Numbered from the stretch's first letter, positions 1,155 through 13,411 are shown. The stretch is 55,473 nt of DNA from an uncultured virus (IMG/VR IMGVR_UViG_3300026522_000616) (IMGVR_UViG_3300026522_000616); one strand, 5' to 3'. Notes: a model not told the origin generated them from the letters alone. Translations and numbers: made by a program.

Positions 1155-2939
1155 ATGGGTATGGGTAATGGTGTAAGACAATATCAGCAGAGTGCAATTT
1201 GCGATACAGATTATACAGATGATTATATGGTGATTGCGCGTCATGCCGAAATGAAAAAACATTCTTTATATAATGCTTATTTGTTGGATATTGCTAAAAA
1301 TAAGGGCTATTCAACTAAATTAACTGATTCTTATTTGACTGCATTAAATAATTGTCAAAAAGACATGACTACTGTTGTAGATAAAAAAATGGGTACATAT
1401 TATCATACTTATGGATTCCGTTGCAGAAGAAATTTTTGTTGGGGTTGCATGGATAAAAAAACAAATATTTTGTATCGCAATACGTTAAAAGCCGTTGATG
1501 AATATTTGTTTAACAATCCTTCTTCACAGTTTAACGTTTATATGTCAACATTTTCTTTAGATTATGTTGATACTATGGAAGAAGCAGTTGATTCTTTAAA
1601 ACGTTTAGATAAATATATGAAAAAAATTACTAGAGCATATTCTAATTTAAATTATACTAAAAAGAATGGTGCAATTATTGGAAAAGGAAAAAGAAAACCT
1701 TGTATGACATTGGCGAAAATCATTAATGATGATTTAGGATTTATTTCGTCATTAGAATTATCTTATAAGCCGAATCGTGGTTTTAAACCACATATGCACA
1801 TTAATGTAATTACAGATATTAATACACATATTACAGGTCAGGAAATGGATGACCTTTTTATGTATGCTTCAGGTTTAAAGAAAAACGAATTTTATAGTTT
1901 TACAGAAGAAACTCATGCAGATAAACTAGATTTTGATTTTGCAAAGCAGATTGCTTTAATTTCTTCTTATACAATTAAAGGCTTTTTAATTGATTTTCAA
2001 AAAACAGGTATGTCTACTGATGAACAGGCAAAGTCGGCAGGAGTATTATTTGATTTTTTGTTCAAGAAAAATATTGTAAGTGTTTTAGGAAAAATTTTTA
2101 ATGGTCAAAGAATTCGTTCTAAGACAACGAATACTACAGGCAGACATGAACATAAACTTTTAAATCAGATTGGCATTCGTGAAAATGGTTTAAATGAAAA
2201 TGAATATGATGATATTGTAAAAGAATTTGAAGGTCAACCTGTACAAGAAAATGATATTACAGATAATGTGAGTATTGACGAGTCTGGTATTCTTCCTAGA
2301 AAAGAAGATTTAAAAAATGATAAATTTATTAGTGTAGGTCAGGCTGCGAGAAAATATGCACAGAAATTAAATATTAGTAAAACAATTAATATTCCGACGC
2401 ATAATCAAAATCTTTCTTTGTTGAATACATATACAAAAGACAAAATCCAATACGAGCAACAAGTTTTGTGGAATTTTGATGATAATAAACTTTCATTTAT
2501 TGCACATACATCAAAAAATGATTTGAATCGTGTATTAGCTATGCGTATTTTAAAGGTAAAAAATATGTGCAGGGATTTTGCAGAGAAACAAAAGAAGATT
2601 TTAAATGAAAAACATCCAATGCTTTTTGAACATATTGTTGAAAGAGCAAAAGTATCTTATATGAAAGATAAGATTATGAAACATTTTCACATGGATACAT
2701 GTATTAAATATATTTATAATTCATATGAAAATGTGTATTTAAAATCAAGTAAAGTGGATTATGCAGAAAATGGTATGATTTTAAATGCTATTTATTACAA
2801 TACATTTATATCTCATGAAGAATATAATCAAATGAAAAATGAATGGTTAAATTCTAATGAGTATACAATTCCGAATGGTTATTTTTGCCGTTCATCAAAA
2901 CATACAAAGATGTCAAAAAGATTTATTAAAAACAAATAA
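1155..2939 (+). CDS. HUH endonuclease, rolling-circle Rep-like, with long C-terminal extension
   Basis: Cys cluster C..CRRNFCWGC, LELSY..KPHMHINV (HUH), SSYTIK (YxxK); GAAAGGA RBS; TTGACA-17-TATAAT promoter at 992-1018. Confidence 0.7.
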   Translation: MGMGNGVRQYQQSAICDTDYTDDYMVIARHAEMKKHSLYNAYLLDIAKNKGYSTKLTDSYLTALNNCQKDMTTVVDKKMGTYYHTYGFRCRRNFCWGCMDKKTNILYRNTLKAVDEYLFNNPSSQFNVYMSTFSLDYVDTMEEAVDSLKRLDKYMKKITRAYSNLNYTKKNGAIIGKGKRKPCMTLAKIINDDLGFISSLELSYKPNRGFKPHMHINVITDINTHITGQEMDDLFMYASGLKKNEFYSFTEETHADKLDFDFAKQIALISSYTIKGFLIDFQKTGMSTDEQAKSAGVLFDFLFKKNIVSVLGKIFNGQRIRSKTTNTTGRHEHKLLNQIGIRENGLNENEYDDIVKEFEGQPVQENDITDNVSIDESGILPRKEDLKNDKFISVGQAARKYAQKLNISKTINIPTHNQNLSLLNTYTKDKIQYEQQVLWNFDDNKLSFIAHTSKNDLNRVLAMRILKVKNMCRDFAEKQKKILNEKHPMLFEHIVERAKVSYMKDKIMKHFHMDTCIKYIYNSYENVYLKSSKVDYAENGMILNAIYYNTFISHEEYNQMKNEWLNSNEYTIPNGYFCRSSKHTKMSKRFIKNK

Positions 2940-3088
2940 ATTGCTTGACAAATGTTCGTATGTATGATAAGATAAATACTGTGATAAGGATAAATCAAAA
3001 AAATCTTGTATCACATTCAAATTTTTTTCTTGACAATTGAATATATATTTGTTATAATGTCTTTGTTGAAAGATATTATATAAATGTA

Positions 3089-3267
3089 AAGGCGCAATCA
3101 GCAATCATTTACATAATACTAAAACATATTAAATGTTTTTACGAAAAGTCTGCTTACTCATTTCAAAGATTTGACTTTAACGTAATAATTATATTGTATC
3201 TCTCCTTTCAATACAATATATAACCTATAACACTTATTGCACATCACAAGTGATTTATGCGTCTTGT
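3089..3267 (+). ncRNA. CAGCAA-stem RNA motif copy 1 (long insert with anti-SD loop)
   Basis: AAGGCGCA-AT-CAGCAATC...TGCGTCTTGT; ends pair; directly upstream of tRNA-Leu. Confidence 0.6.
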
Positions 3268-3272
3268 TAAAT

Positions 3273-3359
3273 GGCGGATTGGCGAAATTGGCAAACGTAG
3301 CAGACTCAAAATCTGCCGATAGAAATATCTTTTCGGTTCAAGTCCGAAATCCGCTACCA
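3273..3359 (+). tRNA. tRNA-Leu(CAA)
   Basis: Cloverleaf, long variable arm, loop CTCAAAA, CCA end. Confidence 0.95.
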
Positions 3360-3387
3360 AGAATATAATTTCATAATTATATATATT

Positions 3388-3470
3388 TAGACACAGCCAG
3401 CAATCTTTGAATTTAAAAAATGATGATTTTTAAATTTTAATATGGTAACATATTAATCTATGTGTCTAGT
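3388..3470 (+). ncRNA. CAGCAA-stem RNA motif copy 2
   Basis: TAGACACA-GC-CAGCAATC...TGTGTCTAGT; directly upstream of tRNA-Lys. Confidence 0.6.
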
Positions 3471-3474
3471 AAAT

Positions 3475-3550
3475 GAATCTGTAGCTCAGTTGGTAGAGCA
3501 CCTGACTTTTAATCAGGGTGTCGTGGGTTCAAATCCCACCAGGTTCACCA
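3475..3550 (+). tRNA. tRNA-Lys(TTT)
   Basis: Cloverleaf, loop CTTTTAA, CCA. Confidence 0.96.
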
Positions 3551-3562
3551 TTTGAAATTGGT

Positions 3563-3592
3563 AAGACTTCATATTTATGAAGTCTTTTTTTA
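3563..3592 (+). terminator. intrinsic terminator
   Basis: AAGACTTCAT/ATGAAGTCTT hairpin plus T run. Confidence 0.85.
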
Positions 3593-3600
3593 TTGGAAGA

Positions 3601-3670
3601 GAATACCCCCACTTCTAAGCTACGAGGTAGCCGTTAGGCTATCCGAGTAGCGAAAGTTGGGGATGACCAA
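3601..3670 (+). mobile_element. IS200/IS605-family right-end remnant
   Basis: GAATACCCCCACTT...AAGTTGGGGATGACCAA resembles the GAA-CCC-hairpin-GGG-GTCAA end of tnpB elements. Confidence 0.5.
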
Positions 3671-3835
3671 TATTAACTCTTGACTATTTTCACAAATAGT
3701 GATACAATTAAATCAAAATAGGTGAAATAAAATGCTAATGGCAATATAATTGCAAAGTAGTAAAGATAGATATTCTATTACATTTTAATATTTTTGATGT
3801 AACTCAAGTATAAAAAGAAAAGGAGATAGATAAAA

Positions 3836-4174
3836 ATGGAAGTTCAATATAAGGCTGAGTTTGACTGTAAGCTGGTCAATAGTTCTTATGGAGTTAAGAT
3901 GTTTATAAATGGTGTTTATATCGGTTGTCAAAATTCTACAGATAATAGAATGAAAGAGCTTATTAATAGTGAGTTAGAAAAACACAAAATTCCTAAACAT
4001 GAACCTAAATCCATGACAGAATCACGTAAGCGTAAGATTGAGAAAAATAAACAAATGTTAGAGCATAGTAAAAAAGTAAGAGATTCCTTAAATAAATATT
4101 ATACTGGTGAAAGAACTTATACTTATTTGGGTAAGGGTGAGAACTTCCCATTAGATTATGAGCCTATTGTATGA
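3836..4174 (+). CDS. hypothetical protein
   Basis: AAGGAG RBS. Confidence 0.75.
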   Translation: MEVQYKAEFDCKLVNSSYGVKMFINGVYIGCQNSTDNRMKELINSELEKHKIPKHEPKSMTESRKRKIEKNKQMLEHSKKVRDSLNKYYTGERTYTYLGKGENFPLDYEPIV

Positions 4175-4195
4175 TAAACAAAAGGAGATAGAAAA

Positions 4196-4456
4196 ATGTA
4201 TAGAGCAGAAACTTGGGCATGGCATTGTCCGTTGGAGGAGAATACATATATTAAATGTGGTCAAACGAATAAGATGGAACAAGTCGCGGAGATATTCAAT
4301 AAAAAACTAAATGAAGAGTTTACTGTTGAATGTGGAGGTAGACGCTATAAGGCATACTTTGAAAAAAGCGGAATTAGAGTCCATGCTATGTATTATGATT
4401 TGTGGGACAGTGTTCTTATTGGGCTACTTACAGGGGAAGCGACGATTGTTGGTTAA
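4196..4456 (+). CDS. hypothetical protein
   Basis: AAGGAG RBS. Confidence 0.75.
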   Translation: MYRAETWAWHCPLEENTYIKCGQTNKMEQVAEIFNKKLNEEFTVECGGRRYKAYFEKSGIRVHAMYYDLWDSVLIGLLTGEATIVG

Positions 4457-4482
4457 ATAAAAGTACAAAAGGAGTTAATTTT

Positions 4483-4962
4483 ATGGCTAAATATAACTGT
4501 GTAACTCGTTCTTCTTATTTTTATGTAGTCGATGAGTTTGAATATGAAAAATTTAAGCAACATATTGTTGTTGGAGATAATGACGAGAGAATAGAGTTTT
4601 GGCATAAAATTGCAGATAAGGCTGAAAGTGACGAAGTATACACTGGTAAAAATATGAAACATGCTTTTGGTGGTTATACACAAATATTAGGGTATGTAGA
4701 GGACATTGAGCATTATGATAGCAAGTTATTTTATCCAACTCCAAACTATAAGCTATTTTTAGAAAAGTTATCTAAAATTATTGCACCTAATTCTGCTTGT
4801 ATTATTACAGAAGTAGGTAATAATGCATTGCGGTATCTTGGAGCAGAGGTTAGTATCGTAACACATAATAATTATGAGACACTTGTACTTGATGAAATTA
4901 TTAAGAACAGATTATCAAATAAAAAAGGAATTACATATAGTGATATTGATATGTGGTTTTAA
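4483..4962 (+). CDS. hypothetical protein
   Basis: Start moved to the ATG after AAGGAG. Confidence 0.75.
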   Translation: MAKYNCVTRSSYFYVVDEFEYEKFKQHIVVGDNDERIEFWHKIADKAESDEVYTGKNMKHAFGGYTQILGYVEDIEHYDSKLFYPTPNYKLFLEKLSKIIAPNSACIITEVGNNALRYLGAEVSIVTHNNYETLVLDEIIKNRLSNKKGITYSDIDMWF

Positions 4963-5096
4963 TAAGGTGGAGACTATAAAAGACAAAAAACACTTATTTA
5001 TAATAGAGTTGACTTGACTAGACATTTGAGATATAAAATTATGAATTATATAAATATTGCAATTAGTATTATTAGAAATAAGAACGGGGTGTAATA

Positions 5097-5315
5097 ATGG
5101 AAGTACGTGTAATTTTTATGGATGCAACTGCTGAAAAAGTATTCAAAAACGTAGACAATATCTATACAAAAGGTGGTCTACTCGTTATTAGAGAAGGAGA
5201 TTGGCTTTACAAGTATCCCTTGGAGCATATATTCTCTATCGTGCATAAACACGGAGCACATTGGGGAAGCAACGCATGGAAGAAGAAAGAATTTACAAAG
5301 CAAAAAGACGCTTGA
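5097..5315 (+). CDS. hypothetical protein
   Basis: GGGGTG RBS. Confidence 0.65.
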   Translation: MEVRVIFMDATAEKVFKNVDNIYTKGGLLVIREGDWLYKYPLEHIFSIVHKHGAHWGSNAWKKKEFTKQKDA

Positions 5316-5436
5316 AAGGCGTGCTATATAGAGGATTTATTATGAAAACGACAAAAAAAACTGCTGCCCATATTGTGGCAGCAAAGACATCACCATCGAT
5401 GTAGATGTTACAGTTGGCACTCGTTTTGAGAACAGT

Positions 5437-6435
5437 ATGCTTATTCTTGAAAGGAGAAGAAGAATGAATACAGTTGAAAAGTTAAAGAAAATCTACGATG
5501 AATTAGATAGTGTAGTTGTCAAAGAATGTCATTCAACTGATTATTCAATTAATGGGTGTAGGGTTTGCCCATATTACTCTCACAATGAATGCGACTTTGA
5601 GAAAACTGAAATAAATATTAATCACTTGATTTATGTCTCAGAGAAGCTAGAAGTACAGAGAAAAAAGAGAATAGCTAAAAAATATAAAAAAACCATCTAT
5701 GTAACAGAAGAGGATTGCAGAACGTTGCTTCATCATTCTCCGACAGCATATTTACATCCTGGAAGCGTAAAAAGTATTTGCGCGACATTTGATAACGGGT
5801 ATGAGGTCGTTATCGGTTTTACACCGACATTTGAGTTAGAAGATGATTTCACATTTAGTTTATTCGGTAAAAATGACGAATTCATCAAGACAGAATACTA
5901 TGAGCATTTTCAAGAGACATGGAGGGTTACTGACCCCAATACTTGTGATGAGTATGAATTAACTCTGATTAGAAGCGATAAGCCTAGGCTGTCAGGAGAA
6001 GCACATATTCGCCGACAAGAAAAAGTATCCAATAATGACAAAATGCCAGAGAAACACGAACAGGAGAATAAGCCAAGCAAAATCATTCACGATTTGACGA
6101 TAACAGTAGACGAAGAAACCCTTAAAGATTGGAGAAATCCAACAGGGTTTATGGATGGAGGATATAAGGCTGTGTGGGGAGAATTTGACAATTATCTCAC
6201 CGTTAGGGTAAAACCATCTATGACGTTGGAAGGTGATGGTTTCATCGAAGTTTGCTTGTATAAGGATGGTAAGGAAGTTGCATCAACGTATCCATACTTC
6301 TTGTTTGACCCGATACGCCTTGAATATAATAATGAAGAATATCATATTCAGCTAGAAAAAGAATATAAAGAAAAAAGACCAGAGTTGAGATACACGGAGG
6401 ATTTATTTTTGAAAGAAGATGAAAGCAATGGCTAA
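5437..6435 (+). CDS. hypothetical protein (true start probably 5464)
   Basis: Long ORF, Cys-rich N-terminus, two similar internal domains. Confidence 0.75.
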   Translation: MLILERRRRMNTVEKLKKIYDELDSVVVKECHSTDYSINGCRVCPYYSHNECDFEKTEININHLIYVSEKLEVQRKKRIAKKYKKTIYVTEEDCRTLLHHSPTAYLHPGSVKSICATFDNGYEVVIGFTPTFELEDDFTFSLFGKNDEFIKTEYYEHFQETWRVTDPNTCDEYELTLIRSDKPRLSGEAHIRRQEKVSNNDKMPEKHEQENKPSKIIHDLTITVDEETLKDWRNPTGFMDGGYKAVWGEFDNYLTVRVKPSMTLEGDGFIEVCLYKDGKEVASTYPYFLFDPIRLEYNNEEYHIQLEKEYKEKRPELRYTEDLFLKEDESNG

Positions 6436-6617
6436 TTATTGCTATGCAGTTTGTTTTTCGTATTTCTATTTCACAGATGAGAAAAATACAAAGAACTTAT
6501 GGAGCACATCATTACTCGTGTGAATCTTCTATTGCCGGGACGTAAAAGAAGATTTAGAAAACGTAGAAAAGGGGAGCACTTCTGATACTCACAAAAATTA
6601 AAGATACTATCAATAAA

Positions 6618-6884
6618 ATGTACTGCTTTTTCTTTGACCATGAATTACTAGATAAATTAATCATTGCATATAGTATTGATGTTGGATATATGTATGCTAC
6701 AATCAGCATATATAAAGTCTCGAAATGTAGAAGATGCGGAAAGACTTTTTGCAAAAAAATTGATTCATATGATAAGTTCGGTTGGTATTCTCAGTATCTT
6801 GCAGATGAAGAAGAGAAAATTCTTCGAAAAAGAGGAATCGTATCAATCGCTGAAGCATATCAAAAAGTAGAGAAAAAAGATTAA
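6618..6884 (+). CDS. hypothetical CxxC protein
   Basis: KCRRCGK motif. Confidence 0.55.
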   Translation: MYCFFFDHELLDKLIIAYSIDVGYMYATISIYKVSKCRRCGKTFCKKIDSYDKFGWYSQYLADEEEKILRKRGIVSIAEAYQKVEKKD

Positions 6885-6931
6885 CTCATACTGGGAGACT
6901 AAAAAGGACTGCTAGTAAAAGAGGTGAGAAT

Positions 6932-7390
6932 ATGTATCTGGCAGAAGCGAAAGCTAAAAAACTTGAGCCTATCAAACAATGTCTTAAAATGTATACGAAC
7001 TATCAGATTGAATCAATTAATGATGGTTTTATCATCGTATTTCCATATAGATATTGGCTTGACGGCGATGGTATGTCGATAGTTCTTCTCCTTGAAGATG
7101 ATATGGATACGCTTATCTTACAAGACGATGATTTCTGTATCCATAATTCTATCTGTTTAATTCCAGAAGAAAGAAATAATGTACTCGCCATGGCGAAAAA
7201 ATGTAGGCTCGATTGTTTTTATGATAATGATGAACATGCGACACCAGAATTCCGCGCAAAAATCTCGCCACTTTCTTTTTGCCTTAATAGCAACATAGAA
7301 AGGCTAATTGATAAGATTGAAGAGTTCCTGAATAAACTTATCGTATTCAACTGGAAAGCATACGAGGAAATGGATATAAGGCATTCATAG
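6932..7390 (+). CDS. hypothetical protein (DUF1828-like)
   Basis: FPYRYWLDGDGMSI..ILQDD pattern; GAGGTG RBS. Confidence 0.6.
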   Translation: MYLAEAKAKKLEPIKQCLKMYTNYQIESINDGFIIVFPYRYWLDGDGMSIVLLLEDDMDTLILQDDDFCIHNSICLIPEERNNVLAMAKKCRLDCFYDNDEHATPEFRAKISPLSFCLNSNIERLIDKIEEFLNKLIVFNWKAYEEMDIRHS

Positions 7391-7392
7391 AC

Positions 7393-7439
7393 AGGTGCGG
7401 CGGAGACTCGTGACTTCAGTCATGAGAGGAGCCACACCT
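7393..7439. mobile_element. IS200/IS605-family end hairpin remnant
   Basis: AGGTGCGGC..CTCGTGACTTCAGTCATGAG..GCCACACCT nested palindrome. Confidence 0.6.
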
Positions 7440-7535
7440 TCCACCTCCTTTTGATAAAAAATATAGAGTTTCAGCAAAAAATTACTATAATAATTTTGAT
7501 GAAGATAAAGAAAGTTTATGGTATATGATGTTAGT

Positions 7536-7676
7536 ACTACGTTGTTTATGTTATCTTACCCTAGAATGATACCCTAGTTCTAGGCTCTAAGTAGGTTCTG
7601 TAAACAGCTCTGATAGGTAGGAACAGTTAACCTAGTGTGGTCGAATACGACAAGCATTTGTAACTTTAGCGAAAGG
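7536..7676 (+). ncRNA. orphan IscB omega-RNA (HEARO-like) scaffold fragment
   Basis: CTACGTT...CCTAGAATGATACCCTAGTTCTAGGCTCT...TAAACAG...AAGC...AACTTTAGCGAAAGG; no iscB ORF follows. Confidence 0.65.
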
Positions 7677-7729
7677 AGGAAATATGTTATCTGATATTGA
7701 CAAATGAGATTAAATGTGATAATATATAA

Positions 7730-7900
7730 GTATGAAATGCAGGAAGTATTTCATACAAGTAAAGACACTTTCAGCAATCATTTATTGATTATTGATAGGA
7801 AATCATAATGTGTCTTGTGTTTGAATTTCTGATTTCTTGGCAGTTCTCCTTTAACAAAAGTACGATAATATGGTGATTAAATTATCGTGCTTTTTGTTTT
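7730..7900 (+). ncRNA. sRNA containing CAGCAA-stem motif copy 3 (7762-7818)
   Basis: TTGACA at 7697; AAGACAC-TTT-CAGCAATC...TGTGTCTTGT; anti-SD TTCTCCTTT at 7844; terminator 7856-7900; no ORF. Confidence 0.6.
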
Positions 7901-7935
7901 GAGGAAATGAATCCATAGAAAGAAGGTATAAAAGA

Positions 7936-8100
7936 ATGATTAAAGAAACTGATATTAAGCCAAAAGTTCATAAAGATTATAATGAACAGGTTTTTGTTTC
8001 TTTAAAAGAGGTACAATTTGCAAAACGAGCAGTTGATGTAATCCTTTGTGTTTGTGCAATTGCTTGTGCTATGGCGATTTTGGTGTATTACCATATGTAA
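7936..8100 (+). CDS. small membrane protein (54 aa)
   Basis: AGAAGG RBS, hydrophobic C-terminus. Confidence 0.5.
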   Translation: MIKETDIKPKVHKDYNEQVFVSLKEVQFAKRAVDVILCVCAIACAMAILVYYHM

Positions 8101-8114
8101 AAATTTTATCGAAA

Positions 8115-8411
8115 GCGCCGTAAAACCCCGCCCTTTAGGGCTGGGGATATAAGGCGCGAGAACTAAATTAAGTATTGACAAGCACCAACTTTTGTATTAT
8201 AATATAAACAAAATAACAAACAGTAGCTTAAACAATATAAAAACTGTACCGTAGGGCTTACGGAATCAGTATAAAACTAAGCCTATGGAGATTGCGTAAG
8301 ACATAAAAATATATAGTATAACTATCATAACTATATATCATGTGATTAAATCACATGATGCTGCGGTCAATGAATTAGGAATTCCCTGCCTTTAGGCATG
8401 GGGAGTGTCAA
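8115..8411 (+). mobile_element. non-autonomous IS200/IS605 mini-element: left-end hairpin, promoter and TnpB omega-RNA
   Basis: CCCCGCCCTTTAGGGCTGGGG hairpin; TTGACA-17-TATAAT 8175-8203; GTACCGTAGGGCTTACGGAA..GCCTATGGAG..GAATTCCCTGCCTTTAGGCATGGGGAGTGTCAA. Confidence 0.75.
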
Positions 8412-8468
8412 ATACCTGTTATATTAAACATATGTTTATTTTATATAATAGGTGTAAGAAAGAAATAT

Positions 8469-8546
8469 GGCGCAGTAGCACAGTTGGATTAGTGCATAGA
8501 CCTTCTAAGTCTACGGTCGTGAGTTCGAGTCTCACCTGTGTCACCA
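8469..8546 (+). tRNA. tRNA-Arg(TCT)
   Basis: Loop CTTCTAA, CCA. Confidence 0.95.
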
Positions 8547-8745
8547 TTTAGATTTTTTATGTATTTAAAAAATTTTGTGCTTGACAAATGATTGGATACA
8601 TGATACAATAAATGAGTAAGGTTGATAAAGATATTTTACTTCTTAAAAAAAATAAATCAAGAAAGCACTTGACAGATAGCGATTGATTTGATATAATAAA
8701 GAAGTAAGGTTGAGATAAATCTTACAAAAGAGAAAATCAAATAAT

Positions 8746-8832
8746 GCGAGTGTGGCGGAATCGGCAGACGCATGGAACTTAAAATCCTAGGGTGGCAATA
8801 CCGTGAGGGTTCAATTCTCTCCATTCGCGCCA
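8746..8832 (+). tRNA. tRNA-Leu(TAA) copy 1 (mismatch in anticodon stem)
   Basis: Loop CTTAAAA; stem TGGAA/TCCTA imperfect. Confidence 0.8.
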
Positions 8833-8859
8833 AATTATTATTTTTCTTGGGGGGATTTA

Positions 8860-9099
8860 ATGAGAAATTATCCAGTAGACTCAATCCATTTATCAATCGA
8901 AGAGGTTATTCCATTTAATAATGACAGGCATTCTGGAATTATTTTTAAATGGTCCAGCGATATTGGATTTGGAGAGTATACAATATATAAAAATAAAGAT
9001 GGTTGGTTTGCTGACTCAGAAACCATGGATTCTAATAACGACAAAAGTTTTGTAAAAGAACTAATGAATCTTTGGATAAAAGATGTTTGTGTTATATAA
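8860..9099 (+). CDS. hypothetical protein between duplicated tRNA-Leu genes
   Basis: GGGGGA RBS, ATG at 8860. Confidence 0.7.
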   Translation: MRNYPVDSIHLSIEEVIPFNNDRHSGIIFKWSSDIGFGEYTIYKNKDGWFADSETMDSNNDKSFVKELMNLWIKDVCVI

Positions 9100-9151
9100 T
9101 CTTTGTTTTCAAGAGCATCATTCATTTTAAATATACTTAGCTTTGTATAGT

Positions 9152-9238
9152 GCGAGTGTGACGGAATTGGCAGACGTATGGGACTTAAAATCCCAGGGTA
9201 GTAATACCGTGAGGGTTCGACCCCCTCCATTCGCACCA
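9152..9238 (+). tRNA. tRNA-Leu(TAA) copy 2
   Basis: Perfect anticodon stem TGGGA/TCCCA, CCA. Confidence 0.95.
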
Positions 9239-9242
9239 TTAT

Positions 9243-9319
9243 GTTGGTTGTGGCGAAATGGTTAACGCGCTAGATTGTGGCTCTAGTTATTGCAGGTTCA
9301 AATCCTGTCAACCACCCCA
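9243..9319 (+). tRNA. tRNA-His(GTG)
   Basis: Loop TTGTGGC, G-1, C discriminator, CCA. Confidence 0.92.
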
Positions 9320-9320
9320 A

Positions 9321-9394
9321 GATAACTTATATATCAGTACCTTTACGTGGTAGTTATCATAAGTATCTGAAAAAGAGAAACTAAAACTGATATA
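9321..9394 (+). ncRNA. HDV-like theta ribozyme
   Basis: P1 GATAACT/AGTTATC, P2 ATATCAGT/ACTGATAT, P3 ACC/GGT with L3 TTTACGT, J4/2 CTAA. Confidence 0.85.
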
Positions 9395-9405
9395 AGACAA
9401 TTAAA

Positions 9406-9945
9406 ATGGGTAATGGAATTATGTATAAGATTAATGAAAAATATCCAAATTATAAAATATACGATAATGGAATTATCACAGATTTAAATGATAAACTATT
9501 AAAGGTATTTACTAGTGGTAAGGGATATTTATATGTCAATTTTTATGTAAATAAAAAGACAAAAATTGTTTTTATACATAGACTTGTTGCTTATATGTTT
9601 TGTAAAGGATATAAAGAAGGATTACAAGTAAATCATATCAATGGAATAAAAACTGATAATAGAGCTTGTAATTTGGAATGGGTTACTGCGAAAGAAAATA
9701 TGCAACATAGTGTTAGTACATTAAGAAATTTTATTGGCAGTAAAAATCCTATTGCAAAAAAGATTGATGTATATAATTATAAAACAGGAAACCTTGTAGC
9801 ACATTATGATTGTATAGCTACTATGATAAGAGATTTTTTATGTAAGAATTTAGGGGTTTGTTATCATAGTGCAGAACAAAGTGTATATAGAATTTTAAAA
9901 GGTGTACGAAAATCTTATTATGGATATACATTTAAATATGTATAA
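9406..9945 (+). CDS. free-standing HNH homing endonuclease
   Basis: IHRLVA...VNHINGIKTDNRACNLEWVT. Confidence 0.92.
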   Translation: MGNGIMYKINEKYPNYKIYDNGIITDLNDKLLKVFTSGKGYLYVNFYVNKKTKIVFIHRLVAYMFCKGYKEGLQVNHINGIKTDNRACNLEWVTAKENMQHSVSTLRNFIGSKNPIAKKIDVYNYKTGNLVAHYDCIATMIRDFLCKNLGVCYHSAEQSVYRILKGVRKSYYGYTFKYV

Positions 9946-9975
9946 TATGTTGATAATATAAAATTTATTATAAAT

Positions 9976-10052
9976 CCGCCCGAAGCTCAATTGGTTGAAG
10001 CAAGCGTCTTATACACGATAGGTTCTGGGTTCAAGTCCCAGGGGGCGGACCA
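9976..10052 (+). tRNA. tRNA-Ile(TAT)
   Basis: Loop CTTATAC, A discriminator, CCA. Confidence 0.85.
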
Positions 10053-10121
10053 TTATCATCAAAATAAGGTGAAAATCTTATAATGATGAAAAATTTATAA
10101 ATGATTAAAAATCATTTATCT

Positions 10122-10197
10122 GGCTCCTTAGTCAAGTTGGTTAAGACAACAGGTTTTCATCCTGTCATCGTCGGTTCGAGCCCGGCAGGAGTCACCA
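10122..10197 (+). tRNA. tRNA-Glu(TTC)
   Basis: Loop TTTTCAT, CCA. Confidence 0.93.
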
Positions 10198-10270
10198 GTT
10201 ATCCTATTATCAATACCTTTACGGGGTGGATAACATAAGTACCTGATATAAGGGAAACTAAAATTGATAA
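10198..10270 (+). ncRNA. HDV-like theta ribozyme
   Basis: P1 GTTATCC/GGATAAC starts right after CCA; P2 TTATCAAT/ATTGATAA; J4/2 CTAA. Confidence 0.88.
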
Positions 10271-10281
10271 AACTAAAATAT

Positions 10282-10368
10282 GGGCAGGTGTCCGAGTGGC
10301 TAAAGGAGCCAGACTGTAAATCTGGTGGCTTTATGTCTACGTTGGTTCAAATCCAACTCTGCCCACCA
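10282..10368 (+). tRNA. tRNA-Tyr(GTA)
   Basis: Loop CTGTAAA, long variable arm, CCA. Confidence 0.96.
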
Positions 10369-10369
10369 T

Positions 10370-10445
10370 TCACCAGCAGTCCAGTCGGGGGGACAAATGA
10401 CTATTAATCATTGGGTCGTAGGTTCGACTCCTACCTGGTGAGCCA
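10370..10445 (+). tRNA. tRNA-Asn(ATT), unusual A34
   Basis: Acceptor TCACCAG/CTGGTGA, G discriminator, loop CTATTAA, CCA; position 8 is C. Confidence 0.8.
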
Positions 10446-10447
10446 TA

Positions 10448-10521
10448 TGCAGGATATTGTAAAGGTAACATGGAAGTCTCATAAACTTTCGTTAGTAGTT
10501 CGAGTCTACTTCCTGCACCCA
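10448..10521 (+). tRNA. tRNA-Met/Ile2(CAT)
   Basis: Loop CTCATAA, CCA. Confidence 0.85.
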
Positions 10522-10525
10522 TAAT

Positions 10526-10598
10526 GCGGTATTGGTTTAATGGTAAAACATCATCCTTCCAAGTTGAAATTGTGAGTTCGATTCTCACATACCGCTCC
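10526..10598 (+). tRNA. tRNA-Gly(TCC)
   Basis: Loop CTTCCAA; ends in CC followed by the ribozyme G. Confidence 0.92.
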
Positions 10599-10676
10599 GT
10601 CAATCTATTATTAGTACCTTTTCGTGGTGATTGACATAAGTACCTAACATAAAATTAGGGAAACAAAAACTAATAA
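10599..10676 (+). ncRNA. HDV-like theta ribozyme
   Basis: P1 GTCAATC/GATTGAC, P2 TTATTAGT/ACTAATAA, P4 CCTAA/TTAGG, J4/2 CAAA. Confidence 0.85.
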
Positions 10677-10728
10677 AATCCTTGACAAACATTGTATTAA
10701 GTGGTACAATATAATTGTTAAAGGAAAT

Positions 10729-10805
10729 GGTGGTATAGCCAAGTGGATTAAGGCGACGGTCTGCAAAACCGTTATTCCACAGTTCAAATCTGTGTACCAC
10801 CTCCA
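10729..10805 (+). tRNA. tRNA-Cys(GCA)
   Basis: Loop CTGCAAA, CCA; promoter at 10682. Confidence 0.95.
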
Positions 10806-10813
10806 ATTAAATT

Positions 10814-10888
10814 AGGGGTATAGCTCAATGGCGAGAGCGGTCGGCTTTGACCCGACATATCTTAGTTCAATTCTAAGTACCCCCGCCA
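10814..10888 (+). tRNA. tRNA-Gln(TTG)
   Basis: Loop CTTTGAC, 1:72 mismatch, CCA. Confidence 0.9.
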
Positions 10889-10889
10889 T

Positions 10890-10964
10890 GCTGACGTGGC
10901 GCAAAGGTAGCGCAATTCATTTGTAATGAATCGGTTGTAGGTTCAAGTCCTACCGTTAGCTCCA
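10890..10964 (+). tRNA. tRNA-Thr(TGT)
   Basis: Loop TTTGTAA, CCA. Confidence 0.95.
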
Positions 10965-10990
10965 TTTAAAATTTAAATAATTAAATATAT

Positions 10991-11032
10991 AAGACACTAT
11001 CAGCAAAGAATTATGGGTATAATGTGTCTTGT
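10991..11032 (+). ncRNA. CAGCAA-stem RNA motif copy 4 (minimal)
   Basis: AAGACAC-TAT-CAGCAAAG...TGTGTCTTGT. Confidence 0.6.
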
Positions 11033-11037
11033 AAAAG

Positions 11038-11180
11038 TTATTATTTTGGTTTAATATTTTATTCTTCAATGTGAGACGAGTGGCAAGGTACACCTCGCGC
11101 AAGGTGGTTTAGCGAGAGCTAACGCAAGTCCGAATCTTGCCATTGTTTAAAAAGGTAAAATATTTTATTAAGATAATAAT
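11038..11180 (+). ncRNA. tRNA-like RNA on an extended stem
   Basis: D-like, CACCT/AGGTG, TTAGC/GCTAA and GCAAG-TCCGAAT-CTTGC arms closed by CAATG/CATTG; no CCA. Confidence 0.55.
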
Positions 11181-11184
11181 ATAA

Positions 11185-11220
11185 ATAACCTCAGTTTGGC
11201 GATGACTGAGGTTATTTTAT
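11185..11220 (+). terminator. intrinsic terminator ending the tRNA operon
   Basis: AATAACCTCAGT/ACTGAGGTTATT. Confidence 0.85.
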
Positions 11221-11266
11221 AAAATAATTATTTGACAAATACAAAGAATTGTTGTATAATATATAT

Positions 11267-11525
11267 AGAAATCAAGAAGATAGAATTTTTTGTAGAAGAT
11301 TTATCGGTCCATGTATTTCTTGTTTAACAGAACACGTTATATTAAAAATGTGTCGATACGTAACAAGTGGTTTTCAGATATGTTTTTATAATGCATGACA
11401 AATTCTATAAACGAGAAATGATAAATCTTTATGCTAGATACGAAAGATTTTATTGTATTGGTTTTATTTACAAAAACTACATAATGAAAGAGACAAGGTT
11501 TGATGTAGTTCCTTGTCTCTTTTGT
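11267..11525 (+). ncRNA. putative ~255 nt structured sRNA
   Basis: TTGACA-17-TATAAT 11232-11260, long-range helices, terminator AAAGAGACAAGG/CCTTGTCTCTTT, no ORF. Confidence 0.55.
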
Positions 11526-11528
11526 TAT

Positions 11529-11573
11529 ATGTAATTATCATTTATGTAATTATCATTTATGTAATTATCATTT
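11529..11573. repeat. 15-bp tandem repeat x3 (ATGTAATTATCATTT)
   Basis: Three exact copies running into the -35 TTGACA of the next promoter. Confidence 0.9.
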
Positions 11574-11624
11574 GACATTTTAACCAATAGCATCTTATAA
11601 TAAAAATAAAGGAGTTGAAGTATA

Positions 11625-12125
11625 TTGGAAGAAATTCAGATAGGTCAATCACAAAAACCGATATTGAGATTTCCTGACGGTTCATTTATTTATCAATGCA
11701 GAGGAAAATTCGATGGGTTTATGTTTAAACTAAATAACTATGCAATAAAGGATATAGATTATTTTACTTGCTTGAAACAATTATCAGATAAATATGGAAT
11801 AGATAAAGTATATAATGATTTTATTTTAGTTTATAATATGGTTGGCATAAATATCAATAGTCAGCATTGGTTAGCTATTCGTAATATAGCAGAAACGTAC
11901 AATAAGAAAGATTTTTTAGTTGTAGCTAAATTATTTTGTATTCTTTATGTAACAATGCTTGCAGAACAGAATAACGCTCATGCTATTTTAGGTAAGCGTA
12001 TAAAAAGATTAGGTGTATATCAAATATTGAAACAAAATATGCCAATAATAAAAGCAGTTAATTTTTCTAAAGGAAAAAGTGCAAGATATGATTTAGAACC
12101 TTTGTGTGAAAAATATGGTTTCTAG
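11625..12125 (+). CDS. hypothetical protein
   Basis: AAGGAG RBS, TTG start. Confidence 0.75.
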   Translation: MEEIQIGQSQKPILRFPDGSFIYQCRGKFDGFMFKLNNYAIKDIDYFTCLKQLSDKYGIDKVYNDFILVYNMVGININSQHWLAIRNIAETYNKKDFLVVAKLFCILYVTMLAEQNNAHAILGKRIKRLGVYQILKQNMPIIKAVNFSKGKSARYDLEPLCEKYGF

Positions 12126-12159
12126 GTCTTGACAAATAGATGTGGGCTTGATATAATAG

Positions 12160-12270
12160 AAGATGAAAAGAAAAACTTCTCTCTAAAAGTATTTCTTTTC
12201 AAACTTCCTTTTTATTTGACTTATAATTTTATTTATGGTTAAAGATGAACTTCTTTAACCACTTTTTTTG
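12160..12270 (+). ncRNA. putative ~110 nt sRNA upstream of tnpB
   Basis: TTGACA-17-TATAAT 12129-12157, 5' hairpin, terminator TGGTTAAAGA/TCTTTAACCA plus T run. Confidence 0.5.
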
Positions 12271-12322
12271 TTTACAGCATTGCATATATATGATAAACTA
12301 AAAAGTAAGGTGGTGAAATATT

Positions 12323-13411
12323 TTGCATAAACTTTTTAAATTAAATTTGGATAATTATCAAAAACAACAAATTAAGAATATGCTTTTAGATAATTCGCAA
12401 TTATATCATGAAGCATATCTATGGAAACAAAGTCATAAAGAGCCTTTTCAAACGTCTGTAAGGTACTTAGATTTTGTTCCTGAACGATTGCATAAAGAAT
12501 GTGCCATAAGAACGATTAAACGAGCTACAAAGGCAGATAAAGAGGTTAAATACAGGTATCGTAATATCTATATCAATCCAAATAGGTTTACGAATAATCA
12601 GATTGAATTAAATAATTTAATTATTCCATTTGATATTGATACTAACAAAATAAATATTTTGTCTGCATGGATTATGTACAAAAATAAGGAATATTATTTA
12701 GACTTGGAGATTGGCAAATCAGGAAAACATCATATGATTGCTATAGATGTTGGGGTAGATAATTTGGGAGCTTGTGTGACAAGTTTCGGAGATTCGTTTT
12801 TAGTCGATGGTAAAAAATTAAAAGCATATGATTATTATTGTTTAAAGAAAATTAATTTTTTACAAGGAATTAATTCTGAATCCAAAAAGATTGATAAAAT
12901 AAAGCACAATCATTATCATTATTTGAGAACATATTGTGAAAAAGCATCAAATATTGTAAAACAATACTGTATTGATAACGGTATAGATTTTATTTTGATG
13001 GGTAAAATTCCAACAAAAAAATCATTGTCATATCATACATTTATGGGAATGGATTATAAAAGAGACAATATTACTGCATTTGGTATGTCTTTGTTTGTAA
13101 AAAACATTAAGCATATTTGCAAAGTAAATAAATGGGAGTATTCTTGTATTGCAGAAGATTATAGTTCACAATGCTCTTTTTATGATGATGAAAGTGTAAA
13201 GCAAAGAGATAAACACTTTGGTAGGCGCGTACATCGTGGATTATATCGAACAAAAGATAATAATTATGTAAATGCAGATATTAATGCTGCTTATAATTTT
13301 TTCCGAAAATATGTAGATAACATTGATAATAAGAAAAAGAAAATTATTCAATGGAAAAATTGCAAGCAAAATTTAAAATTGCATACACGTAGAGTAAGAG
13401 TTATTGATTAA
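12323..13411 (+). CDS. tnpB: TnpB-family RuvC nuclease, stand-alone
   Basis: IAIDVGVDNL, AEDYSSQCSFYD, GRRVHRGLYRT, NADINAAYN; no tnpA nearby. Confidence 0.85.
   Translation: MHKLFKLNLDNYQKQQIKNMLLDNSQLYHEAYLWKQSHKEPFQTSVRYLDFVPERLHKECAIRTIKRATKADKEVKYRYRNIYINPNRFTNNQIELNNLIIPFDIDTNKINILSAWIMYKNKEYYLDLEIGKSGKHHMIAIDVGVDNLGACVTSFGDSFLVDGKKLKAYDYYCLKKINFLQGINSESKKIDKIKHNHYHYLRTYCEKASNIVKQYCIDNGIDFILMGKIPTKKSLSYHTFMGMDYKRDNITAFGMSLFVKNIKHICKVNKWEYSCIAEDYSSQCSFYDDESVKQRDKHFGRRVHRGLYRTKDNNYVNADINAAYNFFRKYVDNIDNKKKKIIQWKNCKQNLKLHTRRVRVID

Follow-up and report, generated by a model that had tools for sequence, protein, structure and literature searches.

The subject of this analysis is a stretch of 55,473 nucleotides (nt) from an uncultured virus (IMG/VR record IMGVR_UViG_3300026522_000616), hereafter the window, in which four copies of a small RNA element lie interleaved with tRNA genes; each presents an unpaired CAGCAA hexamer beside a closing stem, together with an insert that differs from copy to copy. 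We consider it likely that these CAGCAA-stem RNAs are Y-RNA-like partner RNAs of a phage protein that combines the domains DUF2828 and DUF7788 and is predicted to be Ro60-like. This reading follows from the co-occurrence of RNA and gene in both directions, the predicted Ro60-like fold of the protein, the YrlA-like cargo of related RNAs, and the agreement of handle type with protein family. An earlier note on the window had proposed a constant protein-binding handle that carries variable, Y-RNA-like cargo, and this proposal holds up well: the handle is invariant, a protein with a predicted Ro60-like fold is encoded on the same strand, and YrlA-type cargo occurs in other phages, with binding as the part that we infer.

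The window corresponds to the reverse strand of G000:C1:191113-246585 within a virus record of 281,186 base pairs (bp) that is an estimated 98% complete, and differs from that record by a single base at window position 4859. No near-identical cultured phage was found, the only match being one of 43 nt to an Enterococcus phage. The DNA is AT-rich, carries consensus sigma-70-type promoters and holds 15 tRNA genes, which fall between 3273 and 10964 and share the + strand (ARAGORN). All four copies share one architecture, namely a 7-bp stem (P1), three nucleotides, CAGCAA, an insert, the stem complement and GT:

3089..3267, + strand: copy 1; P1 at 3089-3095 (AAGGCGC) and 3259-3265 (GCGTCTT) with one G-U pair, spacer AAT, CAGCAA at 3099-3104, a structured insert of 154 nt, 3' GT.
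3388..3470, + strand: copy 2; P1 TAGACAC/GTGTCTA, spacer AGC, CAGCAA, an insert of 58 nt with two hairpins, 3' GT.
7762..7818, + strand: copy 3; P1 AAGACAC/GTGTCTT, spacer TTT, CAGCAA, an insert of 32 nt, 3' GT.
10991..11032, + strand: copy 4, the minimal form; P1 AAGACAC/GTGTCTT, spacer TAT, CAGCAA, an insert of 17 nt, 3' GT.

The earlier note had counted these four, and each is where it was reported, on the + strand; the genome as a whole holds six, the other two lying upstream of window position 1 at a distance of about 5.6-5.9 kb (stems TAGACAC/GTGTCTA and AAGATTC/GAATCTT). Both halves of the consensus given in that note fit every window site exactly: the 5' half, AGRCRCNNNCAGCAA, matches without mismatch at 3090, 3389, 7763 and 10992, all on the + strand, and the 3' half, TGYGTCTWGT, at 3258, 3461, 7809 and 11023. 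With up to two mismatches allowed, the 5' half gives 7 matches against 3.97 expected, the remaining three carrying two mismatches each, and 6 of the 29 CAGCAA hexamers on the same genome strand belong to handle elements. Between the stems AAGATTC/GAATCTT and AAGACAC/GTGTCTT three pairs differ, all of them compensated. Copy 1 folds with P1 closed at -29.3 kcal/mol (z -3.08). A covariance model (R1) recovered the four short copies at E-values from 4.5e-9 to 1.5e-5 (copy 2, 1.4e-5; copy 3, 4.5e-9; copy 4, 1.5e-5) and the two long copies only partially, and a search of the whole genome with it returned nothing convincing beyond the six.

The pattern extends well beyond this genome. A scan of IMG/VR with an exact pattern made of both motif halves yielded at least 125 stretches, and the matches listed comprise 112 distinct sequences. 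Three features that the pattern did not demand recur among these 112: a Watson-Crick pair at the unconstrained bases that flank the fixed stem (99), a G directly after the stem on the 3' side (103), and an A as the third spacer base (90). The base after that G is T in 48, A in 40, G in 14 and C in 10, so that, where CAGCAA and a 3' GT had been called invariant, CAGCAA stands and only the G of GT is kept across the family. We then described the element without reference to the stem's sequence, as CAGCAA, a spacer of 3 nt, a 7-bp stem in which every position pairs, and G as the base that follows. Applied to 80 loci and their long flanks, which together make up 871 kb of DNA from related phages, this descriptor gave 200 distinct matches against 1 in the reversed control, with stems that include AAGGCAC, AAGACGC, AAGATGC, TAGATTC and many more. 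Allowing one mismatch in the hexamer, CAGCAA was exact in 209 of 319 matches and its variants stayed at the control level (65 control matches in total), while the spacer measured 3 nt in 229 matches against 15 in the control.

The closing stem covaries, as the earlier note had proposed from the window copies. In an alignment of 112 diverse members, double-sided changes affect five of the seven stem pairs (172 cells), pair 2 is A-U and pair 3 G-C throughout, and G-U or U-G pairs occur, 14 of them at pair 4. The covariation score is 0.621; shuffled alignments gave 0.185, with none of 500 reaching the observed value, and sliding the partner strand gave at most 0.148. Since the descriptor itself demanded pairing, the figure of 99% paired is not informative; the excess over the control and the diversity of stems are. 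The family consensus thus reads N-A-G-R-Y-N-N stem, 3 nt, CAGCAA, insert, stem complement and G, with inserts from 17 to more than 200 nt. The pattern is far beyond chance; the family is real, and its stem is constrained by structure.

The lead to a partner gene came from a scan of bacterial genome contigs, in which about half of the matches are due to chance (60 of 125 passed an additional test for an N:N' pair plus G) and which we take as a lead only. On contigs without a nearby tRNA, the motif lay a few hundred nucleotides upstream of a DUF2828 open reading frame (ORF), on the same strand, in 11 of 12 loci; nine of the 12 ORFs tested encode 478-519 residues with DUF2828 (PF11443) and DUF7788 (PF25043), and two are shorter, with DUF2828 alone. 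The window phage encodes such a protein itself: a 516-residue DUF2828+DUF7788 ORF lies on the same strand at window coordinates of about -5349 to -3799, approximately 9 kb upstream of the first window copy, and the two additional motif copies are found within the 520 nt ahead of it. Further upstream of this Ro-like gene (G000:C1:246586-260585; 8952-9458, 10322-11710 and 11850-13016 on the locus - strand) are genes for a NusG-like protein and for a DUF2201 metallopeptidase-vWA protein beside a MoxR-type AAA ATPase.

The association was then assessed from both sides, and the co-occurring gene that the earlier note had advised looking for is indeed present. Starting from the protein, 80 IMG/VR loci with 3-kb flanks contained 166 motif matches on the strand of the gene, none on the opposite strand and none in the reversed control. 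One to four tandem copies lay less than 600 nt from the start in 46 of the 78 loci with enough upstream DNA, many of them only 13-55 nt upstream of the DUF2828 start codon, and many loci have a further copy right past the stop codon. Applied to the loci without a strict upstream match, the covariance model added 45 matches, all on the strand of the gene; by descriptor and model together, the motif occurs within 3 kb in 68 of the 80 loci. Starting from the motif, DUF2828 was present in 38 of 41 records of at least 80 kb and in every one of the 16 with a completeness of at least 90%. Of homologues of the DUF2828 protein, at least 7,867 were scored. A homologue occurs in 710 of 50,697 cultured phage records, with carriers that include FelixO1-like coliphages, myoviruses of Listeria, Staphylococcus and Enterococcus, phages of Campylobacter and Vibrio, and cluster L-type mycobacteriophages. 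A handle RNA with an anticodon-arm-like insert was also seen on a bacterial chromosome contig of Enterococcus sp. BWR-S5 (3000-3059), where it adjoins Macro-domain and RpiR-type genes, and no DUF2828 gene or tRNA was found within 3 kb.

Only the fold search linked this protein to Ro60. Pfam returned only DUF2828 and DUF7788 for the window phage protein at E <= 10, neither TROVE (PF05731) nor vWA_Ro60 (PF25045) matched at that threshold, and a phmmer search of the sequences in the PDB gave no Ro60 and no solved relative; PHROG 850, annotated as 'RNA-binding protein', matches at E 2.9e-120. An AlphaFold2 model built from a 28-sequence alignment (predicted local distance difference test 83.6, predicted template modelling score 0.80) places all-helical repeats at residues 28-292 and an alpha/beta domain at 303-516. 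All 13 Foldseek matches in the PDB with E <= 0.001 are Ro60/TROVE structures aligned at full length. Thermus phage phiLo Ro60 ranks best (E 1.7e-8, template modelling scores 0.53/0.58), the others being Xenopus, Deinococcus and human Ro60, and isolated vWA domains rank after them. Sequence identity to Ro60 in the structural alignment is only 14-15%. Residues D308, S310 and S312, which form the DxSxS motif of the MIDAS (metal ion-dependent adhesion site), are invariant in the protein alignment. The protein is accordingly modelled as a ring of HEAT repeats followed by a vWA domain with a MIDAS, a predicted Ro60-like fold.

We next consider how the RNAs are placed relative to tRNAs and promoters. 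Around the first three copies the following features were found:

3030..3058, + strand: sigma-70-type promoter, TTGACA, 17-nt spacing, TATAAT (12 of 12 positions, with TG), preceding the copy 1 unit.
3273..3359, + strand: tRNA-Leu(CAA), 5 nt downstream of copy 1.
3475..3550, + strand: tRNA-Lys(UUU), 4 nt downstream of copy 2.
3563..3586, + strand: intrinsic-terminator-like hairpin with a T run, ending the first unit.
7697..7725, + strand: promoter-like site (10 of 12 positions, with TG), about 37 nt upstream of copy 3.

The first unit therefore runs promoter, copy 1, tRNA-Leu, copy 2, tRNA-Lys and terminator-like hairpin, and the close spacing of copies 1 and 2 to their tRNAs is as the earlier note described it. 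Copy 3 appears to be a stand-alone small RNA gene, and copy 4 lies 26 nt past tRNA-Thr, at the end of the tRNA array. Just upstream of the copy 3 promoter sits a full-length Rfam match to HEARO, the IscB-type omega RNA (7505-7685, + strand, 57.3 bits, E 7.5e-10; gathering score 83), with no IscB-sized ORF beside it. Across the 80 loci, the tRNAs within 3 kb of a motif number 1029 on the same strand and none on the opposite one; the gap to a following tRNA is below 20 nt for 40 of 182 motifs, and the gap to a preceding one for 29 of 182. In the tRNA arrays of phages the elements thus take up 'tRNA slots'. Small non-tRNA RNAs within a tRNA cluster are also made by phage T4, whose stable RNAs C and D (species 1 and 2) are released by tRNA-processing enzymes; T4 is not known to encode a Ro-like protein.

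Four bovine-gut metatranscriptome runs provide RNA-level information, with assembled contigs covering 75-86% of the region; parts without contig cover carry no meaning. Contigs over 2950-3511 (2950-3243 in the third run) reached depths of 31, 101 and 171 in three runs, in which contigs over the ORFs at 3.8-7.4 kb had depths of 5-15, and contigs over 10.6-11.15 kb reached 149-180 in two runs. These values hint weakly at a higher abundance of the RNA units than of the neighbouring ORFs, contig depth being a poor measure and tRNA-like stretches attracting reads of other organisms.

Such an arrangement could also be explained in cis: the elements would be leaders that regulate DUF2828, or processing and stability hairpins that punctuate tRNA precursors for a host or phage RNase. 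The many copies that lie 13-55 nt ahead of a DUF2828 start codon, and the others that directly abut tRNAs in arrays, would suit this explanation, which we nevertheless regard as improbable. Copy 3 has a promoter-like site of its own, the distance of copies from the gene can be 9-17 kb and even exceed 100 kb, a single gene can be preceded by several tandem copies whose inserts differ, some members carry complete tRNA-like YrlA modules, and pure punctuation would need no invariant unpaired hexamer combined with 17-200 nt of variable cargo.

Y-RNA-like partnership with the DUF2828 protein is instead what the cargo of relatives points to. Four units of the form AAGAnnC-NNN-CAGCAA (one with CAGCGA) precede the DUF2828 gene of Enterococcus phage EfV12-phi1, and within two of them lie a T arm, a hairpin and a D arm; these two score 45.2 and 34.3 bits against YrlA, below its gathering score of 69. 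Ahead of each handle RNA of this phage stands a conserved element, about 50 nt long and with a hairpin of its own, AAAACGGTTTTGG...GCCGGAACATA (at about 2237-2289, 2424-2475, 2574-2629 and 2758-2811), which may be a repeated promoter or processing signal, and each handle RNA is followed by TACATA. Mycobacteriophage Wyatt2 carries three units after a gene annotated as 'Ro-like RNA binding protein' (DUF2828+DUF7788), with the stems TGAGCGC, TGGACTC and TGGTCAC, each followed by 3 nt, CAGCAA, insert, stem complement and G; the middle unit has T and D arms and scores 36.4 bits. Taken together, the family members in EfV12-phi1 and Wyatt2 reach 28-45 bits against YrlA. Two further phages with a DUF2828+DUF7788 protein follow the same scheme, Listeria phage LP-125 with three handle units just upstream of the gene and E. 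coli O157 typing phage 1 (Felixounavirus) with four between tRNAs downstream of it. At 2465-3016, between its tRNAs and the Ro-like locus, LP-125 additionally holds a ROOL RNA (87.4 bits, E 2.3e-17, against a gathering score of 99.1). Downstream of its Ro-like gene, at 1.3 kb, lies a gene for an RtcB-like ligase. Mycobacteriophage Bxz1 differs on both counts: its protein (gp220) matches TROVE and vWA_Ro60, and its upstream RNAs carry GGCCGAGAG and GGCCGAAGG, of the canonical GNCGAA type, and no CAGCAA. Handle type thus tracks protein family, GNCGAA with TROVE and CAGCAA with DUF2828.

A second class of cargo resembles the anticodon arm. Hairpins of at least 4 bp with a 7-nt CU-NNN-AA loop, the signature of an anticodon loop, occur in 52 of 292 members, compared with 1.9 in shuffles (maximum 7), 3 in reversed inserts and 1-8 for other loop patterns of like composition; the middle triplet is mostly UUU (14), GUU (11) or GCA (5). 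A T-loop-type hairpin is present in 46 of the 292 members against 0.96 in shuffles (maximum 4), and 12 members carry both types. One might then take the elements for decoys derived from tRNAs, or degenerate tRNA genes, that act alone, for instance by soaking up anticodon nucleases or tRNA-modifying enzymes without any Ro-like protein. Their position in tRNA slots and these tRNA-like hairpins would agree with that, yet we hold it to be quite unlikely, as neither ARAGORN in bacterial mode nor the Rfam tRNA model calls the elements, none of the six copies in the window genome has an anticodon-like or T-loop-like hairpin, and both the invariant handle and the near-obligate co-occurrence with DUF2828 would be left unexplained.

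Comparison with described RNAs was negative within the window. At gathering thresholds Rfam reports tRNAs only, and no match with E <= 10 in the range 2900-11300 coincides with any of the four copies. The Rfam search recommended in the earlier note thus leaves the copies without a family, and its remark that this is no named family stands in that respect; the RNAs do belong, on our reading, to the known Y RNA kind. YrlA (RF02553) matched no window copy at E <= 10 and no upstream copy at E <= 5. ARAGORN in bacterial mode finds 15 tRNAs in the window and the Rfam tRNA model 14-15, none at the four sites. Armless tRNAs were rejected after mitochondrial-mode ARAGORN called 11 of about 70 relatives listed, 8 of the 11 on the wrong strand, and K-turns, ribozymes, CRISPR repeats, retrons and miniature inverted-repeat transposable elements were set aside, their conserved letters not fitting and no Rfam model matching.

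A handle for an effector combined with an insert that pairs with phage or host transcripts would make the elements guide or antisense RNAs, an option that the earlier note had listed and with which a constant handle and a variable insert are compatible. Against the + strand of the phage itself, the longest antisense match of each insert of the six copies measures 12-17 nt, no better than for shuffled inserts (means 10.3-14.4, maxima 15-19); this comparison covers phage targets. Many inserts are, moreover, internally paired or tRNA-like, and we judge guide function to be very improbable. Inverted repeats acting at the DNA level, as protein-binding sites, recombination sites or mobile-element ends, would account for a short inverted repeat around variable DNA and for copy numbers that vary between related phages, but are scarcely credible given the absolute strand bias (166 against 0 and 1029 against 0), the tolerance of G-U wobbles in the stem (e.g. 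14 at pair 4), the asymmetric CAGCAA always on the 5' side of the transcript, and co-transcription with tRNAs in a promoter-terminator context.

The Y-RNA-like reading has to be weighed against several observations of our own that run counter to it. The proposed partnership of RNA and protein is derived from genomic association, and the RNA-level evidence consists of assembled contigs in which strand and ends are invisible and into which DNA may have carried over. The six genome copies have no YrlA match, and YrlA's gathering score of 69 bits is not reached; none of the six carries a tRNA-like module, with neither anticodon- nor T-loop-type hairpins, and their inserts form other hairpins. The canonical Y RNA motifs GNCGAAN0-1G and GGUCCGA are absent, the handle reading NN(A)-CAGCAA. 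Folded as single sequences, the two shortest copies do no better than shuffled ones (z -1.7 and -1.2). Twelve of the 80 protein-seeded loci lack a motif within 3 kb, and three of the 41 motif-bearing records lack DUF2828, all three being 37-54% complete. Adjacency is not universal, with four of the six genome copies 9-17 kb from the protein gene and, in several other phage records, gene and motif copy more than 100 kb apart, a distance that argues for action in trans. RtcB was looked for in the window phage and not found, so that the classical pairing of Ro with RtcB in repair is not at work there.

The CAGCAA RNAs can be compared with several described Ro60 systems. Ro60 contacts mainly a motif in the 5' strand of Y RNAs, the canonical form being GNCGAAN0-1G (PMC4201824). 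Like the bacterial YrlA and YrlB RNAs of Ro60 (Rsr), the CAGCAA RNAs are small RNAs beside a Ro60-type gene, on the same strand and often several per locus, with an end-pairing stem, a short conserved motif on the 5' side and a variable module that mimics tRNA in some members; their short hairpin forms resemble YrlB, and a link of processing to tRNA enzymes, putative for the CAGCAA RNAs, is shared as well (PMC4201824). They differ in the handle, which is N-AG-RYNN, 3 nt, CAGCAA and 3' G instead of GNCGAAN0-1G, in the partner protein (DUF2828+DUF7788, not TROVE+vWA_Ro60), and in the dispersal of copies through tRNA arrays, at distances from the gene that reach 17 kb here and exceed 100 kb in other phages. 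Table S2 of PMC4201824 lists 22 phages and is confined to Bacillus phage G, CcrColossus and mycobacteriophages of cluster C; Felixounavirus, Herelleviridae and cluster L-type mycobacteriophages, the DUF2828-type carriers, fall outside it, and Bxz1, the one cluster C phage that we examined, has the canonical TROVE protein and GNCGAA-type RNAs.

The closest phage parallel is Thermus phage phiLo, whose Ro60 binds two upstream Y-like RNAs and complexes with host PNPase, with hijacking of that enzyme as the proposed role (PMC12135203). Both systems pair a phage protein of the Ro60 fold (predicted in our case) with RNAs just upstream of its gene (Yrl1/Yrl2, PDB 9KOP and 9L5Y); the phiLo RNAs, however, were chosen for the CGAA motif that they carry in an internal bulge, and sequence suffices to recognise the phiLo protein as Ro60. 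Metazoan Y RNAs (Xenopus, 1YVP/1YVR) share the terminal stem with its protein-binding site, the variable loop module and the 5'-strand contact (PMC4201824, PMC12135203); unlike the CAGCAA RNAs, they have a GGUCCGA-bearing bulged helix, are products of Pol III, end in a 3' oligo-U that binds La and show no link to tRNA arrays. Two further reports concern homologous genes. For the Ro60-like gp130 of E. coli phage Bas63, the authors guessed that some annotated tRNAs are Y RNAs, and this homologue was reported to counter the Ppl defence system (PMC11482910, preprint); near the homologous gene of Listeria phage CKA15 (CKA15_055), very abundant non-coding transcripts were noted and again guessed to be Y RNAs (PMC12282133). 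Both genes adjoin tRNA arrays, and the two papers leave the RNAs undefined (PMC11482910, PMC12282133). Felixounavirus and P100-like Listeria phages, relatives of Bas63 and CKA15, are among the tblastn matches to the window phage protein. Judged from the related LP-125, the most transcribed non-coding region of CKA15 is probably ROOL RNA, and because the large unannotated gap of LP-125 is that RNA, the CKA15 transcript signal cannot be assigned to handle RNAs.

What was already known is, on these sources, that Y RNAs lie beside phage Ro60 genes and that two groups had guessed RNAs beside DUF2828-type genes. The literature on phage Ro-like proteins and Y RNAs that we searched did not yield a definition of the CAGCAA handle, its association with the DUF2828 branch as opposed to TROVE, its occurrence across tRNA arrays in many groups of phages, or the anticodon-arm class of cargo, and subscription papers could hold more; the DUF2828 literature found contained nothing concerning RNA. 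DUF2828 proteins are common in phages, with RNA partners that were previously undefined and that the Rfam YrlA model misses, and a simple descriptor (a 7-bp stem with AG at positions 2-3, 3-nt spacer, CAGCAA, insert, complement, G) now locates these RNAs. The family explains many unannotated gaps in phage tRNA arrays, the switch of handle with protein family offers a natural specificity pair for structural work, and the cargo classes, anticodon-arm mimics included, hint at what the particles act on. With a Bas63 homologue reported to counter Ppl (PMC11482910), the RNAs are testable in a laboratory phage-host pair.

We envision the following sequence of events. The RNAs would be transcribed from strong early-type promoters, alone or jointly with tRNAs, the promoter at 3030..3058 driving the first RNA-tRNA unit. 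RNase P and the tRNA 3'-end enzymes would excise the neighbouring tRNAs and so free the RNAs, the RNase P cut at the 5' end of tRNA-Leu setting the 3' side of copy 1. The ends of each RNA would then close the 7-bp stem, displaying the unpaired CAGCAA on its 5' side and the G just 3' of it, and this constant handle would serve as the docking site for the phage's Ro60-like ring protein (the HEAT-repeat part in DUF2828 and the vWA domain in DUF7788). By comparison with Ro60 and Y RNAs, the protein may make its main contacts with CAGCAA on the 5' side and with the stem's fixed pairs, A-U and G-C, and the variable insert may be an effector module that tethers or regulates (PMC4201824, PMC12135203). 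Analogy with Ro60-Y RNA particles further suggests that the RNA could gate the RNA-binding surface of the protein, tether other factors, or both; such factors could be host exonucleases such as PNPase, or enzymes that recognise tRNAs. Several RNAs with different cargo would confer several specificities on one protein during infection.

A broader proposal, which we put forward as speculative and rather doubtful, is that of a modular phage ribonucleoprotein toolkit, in which a ring protein with interchangeable tRNA-mimic cargo captures, misleads or recruits host factors, amounting to widespread RNA-based counter-defence in large phages. Its cargo would comprise mimics of the tRNA elbow (T and D arms), mimics of the anticodon arm (mostly Lys-UUU and Asn-GUU) and modules of the window type, and its targets would be readers of tRNA shape or of the anticodon loop, e.g. 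tRNA-cleaving defence nucleases and enzymes of repair or decay. By analogy, the Bas63 finding on Ppl suggests a role in counter-defence (PMC11482910).

Several minor features of the window were also recorded. Within the tRNA array, between tRNA-His and tRNA-Ile, lies an ORF of the HNH_3 homing-endonuclease type (179 residues, 9406-9945, + strand), and ARAGORN assigns the anticodons ATT to tRNA-Asn (10370-10445) and TAT to tRNA-Ile (9976-10052), which, unmodified, are unusual for a phage tRNA set. Beyond the array, a TnpB-like ORF (OrfB_IS605, 362 residues) is found at 12323-13411. Short GC-rich self-complementary stretches without an Rfam match, conspicuous in the AT-rich DNA between genes, lie at about 3600-3675, 7390-7450, 8110-8170, 8370-8415 and 11070-11135. 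One contig from the RNA runs joins 8109 to 8412, skipping the 302 nt between two of these stretches, and we take this piece to be present or absent among strains.

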